A stretch of DNA of 44,883 nucleotides from Escherichia phage EEc2. How positions within the stretch are numbered: the stretch's first letter is position 1; every line of letters starts with the position of its first letter. Under the pieces are notes generated by a model, which did no database searches, had not been told where the DNA came from, and was given only the letters and a program-made list of their open reading frames with translations. The DNA lies in the sequence record ON210144.1; one strand, given 5' to 3'. The translations under genes were made by a program, and so were the position numbers. Of this stretch, positions 1 through 44,883 are shown piece by piece.

Positions 1-610
1 TCTCGCCCTCGCCCTCGCCGGGTTGTCCCCATAGGGTGGCCTGAGGGAATCCGTCTTCGACGGGCAGGGCTGATGTACTCCTTGTCTAGTACAAGGGAGG
101 CGGAGGGAGCACCTAGGGAGGCCTAGGAATGGCTTAGTGGTGGACAAGGTGATTACCTTAGTGAAGCCTCTTAGTGCATTCCTGAGGCCATTCAGGGCGT
201 TTATGAGGTATTGACAGGGTGGATGGGCGTGGGCTATCTGTTCGTTTCGTTCACTCCGCTTGCGCTACGTTCACTCGCTCACGTGTACCTTAGTTTATTC
301 CTTGATGGATAGCTTAGGTTAGCCTTAGTGGATTACCTTAGTTAAAGCCTTAGTGCTTCACTTAGTATCAGCTTAGTAGTGTACCTTAGTAAGTCTTAGT
401 GTCTTCTCTTAGTGATTGCACATGCAAGCATGTAAGATGCCATTAGGTCGCGGTCGGTAGACCGCTGAGAGTAGGTAATAGTGATAAGATGCAGTAGGAG
501 GAACACCAGAAACCTAGCCAACCTAAGCTATCCTAGCTCTATATCTATTGCTTTTCCTTAGTCTAACACGTTAGACAACCTATCTTATTCTTAGTGATGG
601 TAACTTAGTG

Positions 611-639
611 TTGACAAGATAATCTTAGTGTAATACTAT
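611..639 (+). promoter_or_regulatory. Candidate host sigma70 promoter (TTGACA, 17 bp spacer, TACTAT)
   Basis: Perfect -35 hexamer at 611-616 and 4/6 -10 match at 634-639, upstream of the first early genes. Pattern match only. Confidence 0.3.
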
Positions 640-711
640 GCATCACGTAGGCGGTGCTGAGGCACCTAGTAGCCAGCTAGTAAGGCATACGAAGAGACTA
701 GCGCTTACATT

Positions 712-727
712 GCTCTTTAACAATTTG
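712..727 (+). repeat. Conserved early intergenic box GCTCTTTAACAATTTG, copy 1
   Basis: One of three near-identical 16-mers (712, 1246, 1444), each in an early intergenic gap. Confidence 0.6.
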
Positions 728-782
728 CTTAGTGTAACCTATGTATGCCGTGGTCAATTACTTATTGAATGAGGAATTAACT

Positions 783-8805: not shown

Positions 8806-8821
8806 GTCTTACATGTGAGAC
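8806..8821 (+). repeat. Conserved palindrome variant GTCTTACATGTGAGAC, copy c
   Basis: 15/16 match to the perfect palindrome, 18 nt after a stop codon, followed by T-rich sequence; no promoter downstream. Confidence 0.75.
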
Positions 8822-13608: not shown

Positions 13609-13751
13609 AATAGGTCGGCTTAGTTCGGCCTATGATTGTAAAGTGTTGAACCTTATTGTGCATCTTGCACAACCCGATGCTATATCGGGCTTTCTAGTGA
13701 GTACATGCTTGTGCTCAGTACAAAGCTAACTGACAATAGGAGACTAAATAA

Positions 13752-15263: not shown

Positions 15264-15322
15264 TAATAGCAGGTGTTGCCTCTGTTAGTCCTGGTTGACT
15301 ATCACGCTCACCTCATCTAATG

Positions 15323-15354
15323 CCCTGTCTGCCTTAGTGTAGGCAGGGTCTTTT
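15323..15354 (+). terminator. Hairpin plus U-run terminator T1
   Basis: Stem CCCTGTCTGC / GTAGGCAGGG (about 10 bp with G-U pairs), CTTAGT in the loop, then TCTTTTG; near-identical in design to T2. Confidence 0.65.
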
Positions 15355-24762: not shown

Positions 24763-24770
24763 CACCTATG

Positions 24771-24804
24771 CCCTATCTACCTTGCGTAGGTAGGGTTCTT
24801 TTTG
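24771..24804 (+). terminator. Hairpin plus U-run terminator T2 after the capsid gene
   Basis: 10-bp stem CCCTATCTAC / GTAGGTAGGG (one G-U), loop CTTGC, then TTCTTTTTG; 9 nt after the capsid stop, analogous to T7 T-phi. Confidence 0.7.
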
Positions 24805-35970: not shown

Positions 35971-36165
35971 ATGATTAACTCCGAACTGGTAGATAGTGGT
36001 GTGAAGCTTGCGCCACCTGCACTCGTATCAGGTGGGTACTTCCTCGGTATCAGTTGGGATAATTGGGTGTTAATAGCAACATTCATTTATACCGTGTTGC
36101 AAATTGGGGACTGGTTTTATAATAAGTTCAAGATTTGGAGGGAGAAGCGTGAGCGTACACAATAA
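35971..36165 (+). CDS. Holin (T7 gp17.5-like), 64 aa
   Basis: AGGAGG SD; one transmembrane segment then ...IYTVLQIGDWFYNKFKIWREKRERTQ, resembling the T7 holin C-terminal half; syntenic with T7 17.5. Confidence 0.7.
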   Translation: MINSELVDSGVKLAPPALVSGGYFLGISWDNWVLIATFIYTVLQIGDWFYNKFKIWREKRERTQ

Positions 36166-36448
36166 ACATGCAGCTACAGAGGATGAGGTTGGCATTCTGC
36201 ATGGTGCTATTACCAAAATCTTCAATAAGAAAGCACAGGCAATACTGGACACTATAGAAGAAGACCCTGATGCAGCATTACATTTAGTGTCTGGTAAGGA
36301 TATTGGTGCGATGTGTAAGTGGGTTCTTGATAACGGCATTACCGCCACACCTGCTGCACAGCAGGAAGAGTCCAAGTTATCTAAGCGCCTCAAGGCTATC
36401 CGAGAGGCATCCAGTGGTAAGATAATTCAATTCACTAAGGAGGATTGA
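36149..36448 (+). CDS. Terminase small subunit (gp18-like), about 99 aa
   Basis: GTG 36149 with GGAGGG 7 nt upstream, overlapping the holin 3' end; stop overlaps the large-terminase ATG. Assigned by synteny; start uncertain. Confidence 0.55.
   Translation: MSVHNKHAATEDEVGILHGAITKIFNKKAQAILDTIEEDPDAALHLVSGKDIGAMCKWVLDNGITATPAAQQEESKLSKRLKAIREASSGKIIQFTKED
36240..36260 (+). promoter_or_regulatory. Internal phage-promoter-like sequence P9 (CAATACTGGACACTATAGAAG) inside the small terminase gene
   Basis: 18 of 21 positions match consensus, including the full TACTGGACACTATAGAAG; lacks the upstream ATTT. Predicted +1 G at 36257. Confidence 0.45.
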
Positions 36449-38343
36449 TGGCTAAGGCAAGAGAATCACAAGCGGAGGCTCTTGCCAGATGGGAGATGCT
36501 ACAGGAGTTACAGCAGACCTTTCCTTACACAGCGGAAGGTTTGCTTCTCTTTGCAGATACAGTTATTCATAACTTAATTGCAGGCAACCCTCATCTGATT
36601 CGTATGCAGGCTGATATCTTGAAGTTCCTATTTTACGGACACAAGTACCGCCTCATCGAAGCGCCTCGTGGTATCGCTAAGACAACACTATCAGCAATCT
36701 ATACGGTATTCCGTATTATTCATGAACCGCATAAGCGTATCATGGTTGTGTCCCAAAACGCCAAGCGAGCAGAGGAAATCGCAGGTTGGGTAGTTAAAAT
36801 CTTCCGTGGCTTAGACTTTCTTGAGTTTATGCTGCCGGATATCTACGCTGGGGACCGTGCATCCGTTAAGGCGTTTGAGATTCATTACACCCTACGTGGT
36901 AGTGATAAGTCTCCTTCTGTATCCTGTTACTCAATCGAAGCAGGTATGCAGGGTGCTCGTGCTGATATTATTCTAGCGGATGACGTAGAGTCGATGCAGA
37001 ACGCTCGTACGGCAGCGGGCCGTGCCTTGCTTGAGGAACTGACTAAGGAGTTTGAATCTATCAACCAGTTTGGGGATATCATTTACCTTGGTACACCTCA
37101 GAACGTAAACTCTATCTACAACAACCTACCTGCTCGTGGTTACTCTGTTCGTATCTGGACTGCGCGTTACCCTTCAGTAGAGCAAGAGCAATGTTATGGC
37201 GACTTCCTTGCACCTATGATTGTTCAAGATATGAAGGACAACCCAGCACTTCGCTCAGGGTACGGGTTGGATGGTAATAGTGGTGCACCTTGTGCCCCTG
37301 AAATGTATGATGATGAAGTCCTGATTGAGAAGGAAATCTCTCAGGGTGCTGCTAAGTTCCAGCTTCAGTTCATGCTTAACACTCGCATGATGGATGCTGA
37401 CAGATACCCATTACGCCTGAACAATCTAATCTTCACCTCGTTTGGTACAGAGGAAGTCCCTGTGATGCCTACGTGGAGTAATGATTCCATAAACATCATT
37501 GGTGATGCACCTAAGTATGGTAACAAGCCTACGGATTTCATGTACAGACCTGTAGCTCGCCCATACGAATGGGGTGCTGTCTCCCGCAAGATTATGTATA
37601 TTGACCCTGCGGGTGGTGGTAAGAACGGAGATGAGACGGGTGTAGCCATCGTATTCCTGCACGGCACATTCATTTATGTGTATCAGTGCTTTGGTGTACC
37701 TGGCGGATACCGAGAATCGTCCCTGAATCGCATTGTGCAGGCCGCAAAGCAAGCGGGTGTTAAAGAGGTATTCATTGAGAAAAACTTTGGTCATGGCGCG
37801 TTTGAGGCTGTTATAAAGCCATACTTTGAGCGAGAATGGCCTGTGACTATTGAAGAGGATTACGCCACTGGTCAAAAAGAACTCCGTATCATAGAGACAT
37901 TGGAGCCGCTGATGACCGCGCATAGGCTTATCTTCAATGCAGAGATGGTCAAGTCGGATTTCGCTTCAGTACAGAACTACCCGCTTGAACTGCGGATGTC
38001 TTATAGTCTGTTCCATCAAATGTCGAACATCACTATTGAGAAGAACAGCCTCAGGCACGATGACCGCTTAGACGCTCTGTATGGCGCTGTGCGTCAATTA
38101 ACTTCTCAGATAGACTATGACGAGGTTACTCGAATTAATCGCCTCAGAGCGCAGGAGATGCGTGATTATATACAGGCGATGAATACACCTAGGCTTCGTA
38201 GGGCCATGCTGTACGGTGATTATGGTGATGAGCGAAGAACAACTAACACCTCTCTAGCGATGCAGCAGAGGGTTTACGGGCAGAATTGGAGGCACCGCTC
38301 TGGGTCTAGAAATACACTTTCCTCAAGGATTTCAAGGATTTAG
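36448..38343 (+). CDS. Terminase large subunit (T7 gp19-like)
   Basis: ATG 36448 with TAAGGAGG upstream (track start 36445 is TTG); ATPase and nuclease motif regions typical of T7-type large terminase. Confidence 0.9.
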   Translation: MAKARESQAEALARWEMLQELQQTFPYTAEGLLLFADTVIHNLIAGNPHLIRMQADILKFLFYGHKYRLIEAPRGIAKTTLSAIYTVFRIIHEPHKRIMVVSQNAKRAEEIAGWVVKIFRGLDFLEFMLPDIYAGDRASVKAFEIHYTLRGSDKSPSVSCYSIEAGMQGARADIILADDVESMQNARTAAGRALLEELTKEFESINQFGDIIYLGTPQNVNSIYNNLPARGYSVRIWTARYPSVEQEQCYGDFLAPMIVQDMKDNPALRSGYGLDGNSGAPCAPEMYDDEVLIEKEISQGAAKFQLQFMLNTRMMDADRYPLRLNNLIFTSFGTEEVPVMPTWSNDSINIIGDAPKYGNKPTDFMYRPVARPYEWGAVSRKIMYIDPAGGGKNGDETGVAIVFLHGTFIYVYQCFGVPGGYRESSLNRIVQAAKQAGVKEVFIEKNFGHGAFEAVIKPYFEREWPVTIEEDYATGQKELRIIETLEPLMTAHRLIFNAEMVKSDFASVQNYPLELRMSYSLFHQMSNITIEKNSLRHDDRLDALYGAVRQLTSQIDYDEVTRINRLRAQEMRDYIQAMNTPRLRRAMLYGDYGDERRTTNTSLAMQQRVYGQNWRHRSGSRNTLSSRISRI

Positions 38344-38344
38344 T

Positions 38345-38365
38345 ATTTACTGGACACTATAGGAG
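38345..38365 (+). promoter_or_regulatory. Phage promoter P10 (ATTTACTGGACACTATAGGAG)
   Basis: 20/21 consensus; +1 G at 38362; 2 nt after the terminase stop, upstream of the paralog cluster. Confidence 0.8.
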
Positions 38366-38490
38366 GGATACCAAGAGAATAAAAGGATAATATAGGATTA
38401 CCTAGGCTATATAGGTACACCTTATTATGAGGGTACCCCTGTACCCTCTTCTTACCTACTTCATTATTTACTATAAACAAGGAGTATAGA

Positions 38491-38772
38491 ATGGCTAATA
38501 ATTATAGTGATCAACCACTAACAGGACGATATGATCGAAAGCAGGAGACGCCTGTAAGTGAAGCGTTAATGCTCCCTGTTGTTACAGAGGAGTCTATTAC
38601 GAAGAAATCCAATGTTATCAATGATGCAACCAAATCTGGCAAACAGAAAGCAGCAATGGTGTGTCGCCCTGTAGGTGGCACTCTTGAGATTGCCATTGCT
38701 ACTGGCAGCAAAGAGGATGCAGATTGGTTGTCTGTTAAAATGGATGGCGTTGGTCTTATTACACCGGCTTAA
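38491..38772 (+). CDS. Small protein, paralog A of a tandem family (93 aa)
   Basis: AAGGAG SD; shares ...INxxxxSGKQKxAMVxxxxxGxxxxIAIAxGSxxxDxW... with paralogs B and C. Confidence 0.6.
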   Translation: MANNYSDQPLTGRYDRKQETPVSEALMLPVVTEESITKKSNVINDATKSGKQKAAMVCRPVGGTLEIAIATGSKEDADWLSVKMDGVGLITPA

Positions 38773-38789
38773 TAAAAGGAGAAGATAAT

Positions 38790-39077
38790 ATGTCTAAGTA
38801 TGGCGATGCAGGTACTACTACTGGTCAGGCTTTTCGTGTAAAAGCAGTACAAACTATTGCAACTGCAATCCCTATGCCTATCGTAGCAGAAGCTGACCTT
38901 AAAAAGAAAGATCATCCTATTAATATTGAACACCTATCTGGTAAGCAGAAAGGTGCTATGGTGGTTGTAGATAAGGGAGATAATAGCCTTTATATTGCTA
39001 TTGCACGTGGTTCTGCACCAACTGACCAGTGGGATGTAACTACTATGGAAGCTGTACCTGTAACACCAGGAGCTTAA
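38790..39077 (+). CDS. Small protein, paralog B of a tandem family (95 aa)
   Basis: AAAAGGAGAAG SD; aligns with A and C across HLSGKQKGAMVVVDKGDNSLYIAIARGSAPTDQWD. Confidence 0.6.
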   Translation: MSKYGDAGTTTGQAFRVKAVQTIATAIPMPIVAEADLKKKDHPINIEHLSGKQKGAMVVVDKGDNSLYIAIARGSAPTDQWDVTTMEAVPVTPGA

Positions 39078-44647: not shown

Positions 44648-44717
44648 GCAGGTTAATATCTTAGTGTACACAAGGGCAGACCTAGGTTTGCTCTTAGTGT
44701 AATCCAAAGGAGGTAAC

Positions 44718-44846: not shown

Positions 44847-44883
44847 CCAAAATCAAAATTTTGATATAGGCGTGTGTCAGCTC

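Follow-up and report, generated by a model that had tools for sequence, protein, structure and literature searches.

CTTAGT repeats beside the terminal repeat of Escherichia phage EEc2 as a probable SP6-group counterpart of the left-end short repeats of phage T7

The genome of Escherichia phage EEc2 (record ON210144.1) was analysed as one stretch of 44,883 nucleotides, here called the window. Its non-coding left end carries an array of short direct repeats with the sequence CTTAGT, adjoining the terminal repeat (TR). Judged from its sequence and layout, this array is very probably the positional and architectural equivalent of the left-end short repeats (SRL) of phage T7, and thus the SP6-group counterpart of that element. 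We observed that the repeats are enriched, confined to one strand, conserved in position, periodic, subject to selection on the motif and paralleled in T7, and from these observations we infer a mechanism. The explanation that we favour overall, if only tentatively, is that the SRL counterpart acts at the level of DNA, as a platform with many sites at the concatemer junction. By analogy with related phages, its function could lie in junction processing or packaging, a more specific point on which our expectation is somewhat lower.

All CTTAGT copies of the left end are on the + strand, starting at positions 133, 157, 170, 289, 324, 337, 349, 361, 372, 385, 395, 408, 557, 590, 604, 624 and 728, and no copy is found on the − strand in positions 1-800. 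The initial annotation, made from the letters of the window alone, had counted seventeen copies in 600 bp, and this number is correct. At the rate observed outside positions 1-800 (4.65e-4 per base per strand), 0.28 copies would be expected in 602 bp (Poisson P about 1e-24), and CTTAGT is by far the commonest hexamer of the left end. A count across the genome thus bears out the enrichment, with the remainder of the genome at background: beyond the left end the hexamer is not enriched (16 copies on the + strand and 25 on the − strand, compared with about 31 expected for both strands of the whole window). The region is also non-coding, as had been supposed, since positions 1-740 hold no open reading frame (ORF) longer than 44 amino acids and the first gene begins at 783, as in phage K1-5.

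The densest part of the repeats had been described as eight copies between 324 and 414, spaced 11-13 bp apart. The eight copies are indeed there (324-413), but their spacings are 13, 12, 12, 11, 13, 10 and 13 bp, one of which is below that range. An exact copy at 289 and a CTTAGG at 313 prolong the dense array in the same 12-bp register. The best period of the array is 11.9 bp (vector strength 0.95), whereas coherence at 10.5 bp is only 0.11. These values contradict the earlier suggestion of about one copy per helical turn, with cooperative protein binding on one face of the DNA. On B-DNA, the eight copies lie at 0, 86, 137, 189, 206, 291, 274 and 0 degrees, which is a rotation of ~51 degrees per copy and one full circle in all. 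Because the copies spiral once around the helix, any proteins that bind cooperatively have to form a helical complex or else rewind the DNA, and a one-sided stack is excluded. Related arrays have similar periods, namely 13.1 bp in T7 and exactly 12.0 bp in Klebsiella phage cp4. As a single strand, the array folds no better than shuffled sequence (z = +1.5), and positions 1-1600 gave no match to any Rfam covariance model at E <= 1.

We then compared the array across related phages. Over its left 1.2 kb, the window shares 93-95% identity with Escherichia phages EEc4 and K1-5. Matches to this part occur in 98 phage records, most of them from Vectrevirus, together with SP6-like Salmonella, Klebsiella and Citrobacter phages. 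Ten annotated relatives were aligned (K1-5, K1E, P433.1, Sem3, SP6, Kenya-K30, three Klebsiella phages and Proteus phage Pm5460), and 14 further relatives were added from viral and metagenome contigs, giving 23 non-identical arrays in total. When viral contigs were scanned for three CTTAGT in tandem, most hits were coding tandem repeats of no relation to the array, in giant-virus and other contigs, and only about a dozen loci were SP6-like. Scans of viral and metagenome contigs with a 15-mer and an 18-mer from the TR boundary yielded mainly chance matches, together with 4 metagenome loci that are real relatives. In the 23 non-identical relatives, the array keeps its + strand orientation, position and register; a lack of positional conservation, which would have counted against the initial annotation, is thus not seen. 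The taxa concerned are Vectrevirus, Zindervirus, Klebsiella Molineuxvirinae and Acadevirus (at least four genera). In the aligned relatives, the array starts +37 to +90 bp past the TR boundary and ends at about +150 to +190. Between one and three further copies lie within the TR, and for the one at 133 conservation reaches at least 90% in 11 relatives, Klebsiella and Proteus phages among them. The core of the motif is CCTTAGT, with CTTAGG, CTTATG and CTTATC as tolerated variants; exact copies per array range from 5 to 9, and two units are absent in one relative.

Both the register and the motif appear to be maintained. Among the neighbour spacings in the 23 arrays, 121 are of 10-13 bp (10 bp in 9 cases, 11 in 31, 12 in 52 and 13 in 29). 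The 30 longer ones, of 21-25 bp (21 cases) and 34-36 bp (9 cases), are multiples of 12, and the 12-bp register thus survives even where a unit has decayed. Identity to the window is 0.90 in motif columns, compared with 0.51 in spacer columns (Mann-Whitney 1e-13). Within the genus, where the alignment is unambiguous, motif columns have 0.52 differences per column and spacers 1.39, and the numbers of variable and invariant columns are 18 and 36 in the motif, but 43 and 32 in the spacers (Fisher p = 0.008). The spacers are unlike one another from unit to unit, and therefore the motif and its spacing have been maintained, as opposed to having arisen by recent duplication of whole 12-mers.

The left end of the window is a true genome end. 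The window is a complete Vectrevirus genome (K1-5/EEc4-like, of the SP6 group within the Molineuxvirinae) with a single copy of the TR. Both TR copies are contained in the K1-5 and SP6 records, in which the junction reads ...GTGTCAGC(TC) followed by TCTCGCC, in agreement with the end of the window joined to its start. More precisely, the right ends of K1-5 and SP6 read ...GGCGTGTGTCAGC(TC) and then TCTC(G/T)C..., and their right TR copy terminates in ...GGGCGTGGGCTA; the window ends in ...GGCGTGTGTCAGCTC and starts with TCTCGCCCTCGCC. In circularly permuted assemblies of relatives, ...GTGTGTCAGCTC passes directly into TCTCGCC. The junction of K1-5 and SP6 fits the end and start of the window, which is therefore a whole genome opened at its left end, and position 1 is, by homology, the physical left end to within about 2 nt. 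Thus, a permuted window, which would have undermined the initial annotation, is contradicted by the records with two TRs and by the permuted relatives alike. The phage promoters in the window are of the SP6 type. We also noted that the extreme left terminus (2-19) consists of 3 tandem CTCGCC units, at the place of which relatives have CTCGGC or CCGTCG variants.

The initial annotation had pointed to short repeats adjoining the terminal repetition of T7, and in layout this analogy is exact, since both phages have copies in the TR and an array on one strand after its boundary. In T7, CTAAAG occurs at 18, 42 and 61 within a TR of 160 bp, ATCTGTT follows at 161, and about 13 copies lie at 176-356 with a spacing of 13 bp. 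All of the T7 left-end repeats are on the + strand and 0 on the − strand, with stray copies at 417 and in the A1 promoter, where a CTTAAAG copy overlaps the −35 hexamer. Both phages are members of the T7 supergroup with short exact direct TRs and T7-type terminases. In both, three motif copies lie in the TR, and a dense head-to-tail array on one strand is found to the right of an ATCTGTT boundary. In both, moreover, the array is non-coding and upstream of early host promoters, stray copies lie beside the first of these, and the period is 12-13 bp and not 10.5 bp. Several properties differ: the motif is CCTTAGT(G) here versus CCTAAAG, the period is 12 versus 13 bp, and the array starts 50-90 bp past the boundary here, compared with 16 bp in T7. 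The T7 array is followed by the phage promoter phiOL, whereas two conserved hairpins stand in its place here (Table 1).

Post-TR motifs are also present in other phages, as TAAAG at 12-13 bp in T3, CCTGAGG in K11, CCATAGG in gh-1 and longer units in Era103. CCTTAGT and CCTAAAG share CCT and the A at position 5, and T7, K11, gh-1 and the present group fit a loose CCTNAGG-like pattern, although the motifs are too short to prove common descent. Dunn and Studier reportedly described the T7 SRL in 1983, when they published the genome. Elements of this kind have been known in T7 since 1983, and the SP6-group member is present almost unchanged in K1-5 and SP6, sequenced in 2004. A literature search, outside of which lay the 2004 SP6 and K1-5 genome papers, found no description of SRL, of the T7 right-end repeats (SRR) or of repeats in the SP6 group. 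New here are the 12-bp register with its multiples, the selection on motif versus spacers, the rejection of one-face phasing, the ATCTGTT partner and the cp4 variant described below.

Table 1. Features of the window that belong to, adjoin or may be related to the CTTAGT array
Feature	Positions	Strand	Remarks
Terminal repeat, single copy	1-236	.	Starts TCTCGCCCTCGCCCTCGCC, holds CCCCATAGGG as in T7, ends GGGCTA; by homology to K1-5 and SP6; end uncertain by about 2 nt
Three CTTAGTG inside the TR (133, 157, 170)	133-175	+	From the motif count; the T7 TR likewise has 3
ATCTGTT at the right boundary of the TR	236-242	+	In T7, the motif of the class II signal at the concatemer junction where RNA polymerase pauses or terminates
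Core head-to-tail array, 10 units in one 12-bp register	289-413	+	CTTAGT at 289, 324, 337, 349, 361, 372, 385, 395 and 408; CTTAGG at 313; consensus about TAC-CTTAGT-G
GATTGCA, hairpin/palindrome with 5-bp stem (420-424/429-433), then TAAGATGC	414-440	+	Directly after the last array unit; conserved across genera
GC-rich hairpin GCGGTC-GGTA-GACCGC	450-465	+	Nearly invariant in alignments; second TAAGATGC at 485-492, about 20 nt on
Scattered CTTAGT at 557, 590, 604 and 624	557-629	+	Around the first strong sigma-70-type promoter
Predicted first early host-type promoter: TTGACA, 17 bp, TACTAT	611-639	+	10/12 consensus match
CTCTTTAACAAT box and GCTTAGTGTAACC (copy at 728)	713-740	+	Upstream of gene 1; invariant block; resembles the T7 R0.3 RNase III site context
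T7-gp18-type small terminase, candidate reader	36104-36448	+	PF11123 E = 5e-16; phrog_891 E = 3e-25
T7-type large terminase	36445-38343	+	PF22530 E = 2e-36
10-bp hairpin with G.U pairs (44672-44681/44686-44695) between two CTTAGTGTA copies	44660-44698	+	In a 71-bp gap before the last gene
Perfect 14-bp palindrome ATCAAAATTTTGAT	44852-44865	.	18 bp from the record end; immediately left of the TR in the concatemer

The sequence at the boundary itself is likewise shared with T7. The boundary sequence CTATCTGT, in which ATCTGTT is followed by the T-rich CGTTTCGTT, is invariant in alignments of SP6-group relatives. ATCTGT marks the TR boundary in T7, T3, K11, K1F, gh-1 and the window, and the K11 record annotates a 'concatemeric junction' there. 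In T7, the concatemer junction is a class II pause/termination site for the RNA polymerase (bioRxiv 10.64898/2026.02.12.705533, citing Lyakhov 1997). The ATCTGTT at the right boundary of the TR and the T-rich sequence after it are alike in the two phages, which suggests that an SP6-type polymerase would also pause at the junction. This signal is a neighbour of the array and not the array itself. The order of elements at the left end is thus the TR, ATCTGTT, a variable stretch of 50 bp, the array, two hairpin blocks, the promoter region and gene 1.

Several observations suggest that the array is bound as DNA. The sigma-70 promoter scan found no promoter upstream of the array on the + strand. 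(We considered a TTGACA at 211-216, followed by CTATCT, at the end of the TR, and rejected it: its −10 element is poor, the scan did not call it, and it is absent in several relatives of the Klebsiella clade.) A role at the DNA level is favoured because there is no such promoter, the pause/termination motif lies ahead of the array, the single strand is not unusually stable (z = +1.5) and there is no Rfam match. Taken together, the orientation of the array, its place in the least-transcribed DNA of the genome, the lack of single-strand structure, the selection on motif and register, the link to the TR boundary across subfamilies and a sequence that is lineage-specific even among phages of one host point to a phage-encoded DNA-binding activity at the junction. 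Since T7 and this phage both grow on E. coli but have different motifs, a reader encoded by the phage is preferred over one of the host. In the mechanism that we propose, the array would act in cis at the concatemer junction, in the form of double-stranded DNA. A phage-encoded factor could land on its many sites and assemble there as an oligomer that is helical and not one-sided. The resulting complex might mark or orient the junction for end formation, that is, for the cut at the TR boundary, for duplication of the TR, or for arrest of the incoming packaging motor near the left end.

Known systems offer parallels for parts of this mechanism. The R sites of lambda cosB and the SPP1 pacL/pacR sites, which are recognised by small terminases, are likewise short repeated sites beside a concatemer cleavage site and dependent on orientation, and lambda cosQ, an end-of-packaging signal, likewise lies in DNA that is packaged last. 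These sites differ from the present array in that they comprise three or so sites plus sites for bending proteins, as compared with 8-13 tandem units, and in that binding has been demonstrated for them. In geometry, the array resembles the centromere iterons of plasmids, namely R1 parC, bound by ParR (11-bp repeats), and pBtoxis tubC, bound by TubR (12-bp repeats), where 7-10 head-to-tail repeats with a period of 11-12 bp carry proteins that spiral round the DNA as helical filaments; the 11.9-bp period implies a like geometry here. The resemblance is in geometry only, and the present phage is lytic and lacks partition genes. T7 DNA is packaged right end first. The array would thus be in the last DNA to near the motor, and an approach signal of the cosQ kind is as plausible as an initiation site. 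Junction processing and end formation are favoured because the phage has T7-type terminases and because the pac signal and the junction act as cis elements in T7. Specifically, the cis elements of T7 packaging are the pac signal and the concatemer junction, and gp18 recognises PacB (PMC9860248).

Several points weigh against a function at the junction. No right-end array resembling SRR was found in the SP6 group: T7 has 5-6 copies left of its right TR, but here there are just two copies flanking a hairpin, and 36 bp between the last gene and the TR. Nor is the array held at a fixed distance from the cut site, since its first unit starts at anything from +37 to +90 past the boundary. Papers by Fujisawa and Hinkle reportedly place the T3/T7 terminase site pacB on the other side of the TR, and Tsuchida et al. 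in 1996 are said to have found that T3 and T7 discriminate each other's DNA in packaging. Since T3 and T7 share repeats of the CCTAAAG type and yet reportedly discriminate, the array would not be the determinant of specificity. Finally, neither the small terminase nor the RNA polymerase co-varies with the motif. This last point comes from Klebsiella phage cp4, whose array has 7 units at exactly 12 bp, of which five are CTTATG, one is CTTATC and one is CTTAGG. Phage HY has a CTTAGT array, but its small terminase is identical to that of cp4 (101/101) and its RNA polymerase is 99.2% identical. This identity implies either that the CCTTA core and the spacing are enough for the reader, or that the reader is a protein other than the small terminase and the RNA polymerase. 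The cp4/HY comparison and the different motifs of T7 and this phage thus weigh against both a base-specific small terminase as the reader and a shared host factor. An attempt to find the reader by co-variation between cp4 and HY was unsuccessful, as the most divergent proteins (ORF2/3, ocr, ORF23, ORF26 and ORF35) have no DNA-binding annotation in PHROGs.

A wider generalisation, which we regard as unlikely, is that the post-TR arrays of the T7 supergroup (CCTAAAG, CCTGAGG, CCATAGG, CCTTAGT and others) form one conserved class of directional signal, read as a helical nucleoprotein filament with a period of 12-13 bp by a factor other than the RNA polymerase or a base-specific small terminase. 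One possibility within such a class is a cosQ-like signal that the end is near, which would stop the motor and trigger the left-end cut and duplication of the TR.

Other roles for a sequence-specific array seem less probable than one at the junction. The repeats, as part of the first DNA that enters the cell, could function at the leading end during infection, if a host protein or an ejected virion protein protects or holds the entering end, or helps to load host RNA polymerase on the early promoters. We consider this unlikely, even though the array lies between the TR and the first sigma-70-type promoter (611-639), the copies at 604 and 624 abut its −35 hexamer or lie in its spacer, the CTTAGTGTTGACA junction between motif and −35 hexamer is conserved in relatives, and a T7 copy overlaps the −35 hexamer of A1. 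The difference in motif between T7 and this phage, in the same host, makes a common host reader unlikely. From the dense array it is 200-300 bp downstream to the promoter, and the copies near the promoter may be kept simply as promoter sequence. An involvement in replication or recombination is still less probable, whether through loading of primase or helicase, through a fork barrier that places the last lagging-strand primer inside the TR and leaves the TR single-stranded for concatemer formation, or through a secondary origin of the iteron type. Oriented direct repeats beside a genome end do resemble iterons, the T7 phiOL region, a secondary origin, lies just right of SRL, and the spacers in the right half of the T7 SRL (GACCAGACC) hold T7 primase sites on the other strand, as judged by eye. 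However, no initiator or Rep-type gene, phage promoter or marked AT-rich block adjoins 289-413, and neither CTTAGT nor ACTAAG contains GCA, the trinucleotide reported for SP6 primase. In addition, the portion of PMC4837284 that cites Dobbins 2004 gives a proposed SP6 origin elsewhere, near the DNA polymerase gene.

An equally improbable alternative is that the motif works as RNA or single strand, with CUUAGU read by an RNA-binding or processing factor and the array serving as a multi-site RNA. It is suggested by the presence of CTTAGT as the hexaloop of two strong hairpins, one of them a terminator that is identical in SP6, by the copies at 728, 44660 and 44693 in conserved contexts with G.U stems that resemble RNA processing sites, and by the fact that all copies are on the transcribed-sense strand in an array that is unstructured as RNA, so that its motifs would be accessible. 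Nevertheless, there is no promoter from which the array would be transcribed early, just ahead of it lies a class II pause/termination motif, and the copies from 133 to 624 are upstream of the first predicted transcription start. The T7 SRL is similarly outside the early rightward transcript, as the A0 promoter points leftward, and the loop match may be due to chance, given that the loop of a paralogous terminator is CTTGC. The array might also have no sequence-specific function. It would then be mere spacer DNA, or a 12-bp tandem repeat in decay that slippage or gene conversion maintains in a dispensable part of the genome end. The concerted change of motif in cp4, the toleration there of an HNH insertion and of the loss of the hairpins, the variation in exact copies from 5 to 9 and the absence of two units in one relative all fit this idea. 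Yet the motif is better conserved than the spacers within and between genera, the spacers differ between units, which argues against homogenisation of whole units as the cause of motif conservation, and strand, position and register are kept across genera, while T7 has the same architecture with another motif. The architecture shared with T7, the 12-bp register and the selection on the motif thus indicate a functional element rather than junk; a functionless array is accordingly doubtful, though a little less so than a replicative or RNA-level role. A likeness to promoters was also considered and attributed to coincidence, because it is inconsistent: in T7, CTAAAG and the promoter core CTATAG read on the same strand and differ at a single position, whereas here only the reverse complement CACTAAG can be compared, with CACTATAG, and this involves an indel.

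Natural variants such as cp4 with CTTATG, or lineages with 5-9 units, offer a starting point for deletions and array swaps, by which the 40-year-old question of the role of the SRL in end formation could be tested directly. The array is of practical interest with regard to the minimal cis-acting packaging region in engineered T7- or SP6-type phages and in transducing particles. For the annotation of permuted assemblies, the array and ATCTGTT together serve well to locate the true left end.

The region after the array forms a conserved module. In the hairpin at 420-433, 3 of the 5 stem pairs have double compensatory changes (CATG, TAGC and AAGC variants). At the place of the 450-465 hairpin, the Proteus phage has a different self-complementary sequence. 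The 414-492 module is missing in phage cp4, which has an HNH gene inserted there. In cp4 coordinates, this HNH homing-endonuclease ORF occupies 345-752 in the non-coding left end, right after the array, and replaces both hairpins. The large-terminase frame of cp4 is in turn interrupted by about 750 bp (about 38310-39057), which may be an intron, intein or endonuclease insertion. A 17-nt inverted repeat (307-323/517-533, 94% complementary) brackets the array and the hairpins, and its right arm contains the sole motif-like copy in reverse orientation (CCTAAG). We rejected this inverted repeat as a part of the element, as it is weakly kept in relatives (by eye, 13/17 in Sem3 and about 10/17 in P433.1). 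At the other end of the genome, the palindrome immediately left of the TR is kept in K1-5, SP6, P433.1 and Klebsiella phages; it is a candidate hairpin or nick site of the kind proposed for duplication of the T7 TR. Among the relatives of the small terminase, we found no solved structure.

The remaining CTTAGT copies are in other contexts. The CTCTTTAACAAT box is found at 713-724, 1237-1248 and 1445-1456, each time upstream of an early gene. T7 also has this box, ahead of gene 0.3 at the RNase III site, and by this analogy the three boxes are probably sites of early-mRNA processing. In the records of T3 and gh-1, the place equivalent to 713-740 bears an annotated RNase III site. The two copies that had been noticed near the right end, at 44660 and 44693, are present, and SP6 has the same arrangement with another stem sequence. 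A longer motif, CTTAGTGTA, is common to the copies at 624, 728, 44660 and 44693. Three of these (728, 44660 and 44693) adjoin conserved stems with G.U pairs, and the copy at 624 sits in the promoter spacer. These four copies may be a separate, RNA-level class distinct from the array.

CTTAGT had also been reported in the loops of a terminator and of a hairpin after a promoter, and at both sites it is an exact hexaloop. The hairpin at 13610-13633, right after a phage promoter, reads ATAGGTCGG-CTTAGT-TCGGCCTAT, and the intrinsic terminator at 15322-15349, with a sequence identical in SP6, reads GCCCTGTCTGC-CTTAGT-GTAGGCAGGGT-CTTTTG. The paralogous terminator (stem-loop about 24770-24796) has CTTGC as its loop, at 24781, instead, and the hexaloop match may be a matter of chance. 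Lastly, a family of long hairpins occurs at 8810, 9956 and 31650, with the form AAGG(G/C)TTGTCTCA-loop-TGAGACAG(C/G)(C/T)CTT followed by TAT; these hairpins are probably RNA processing or regulatory stems.

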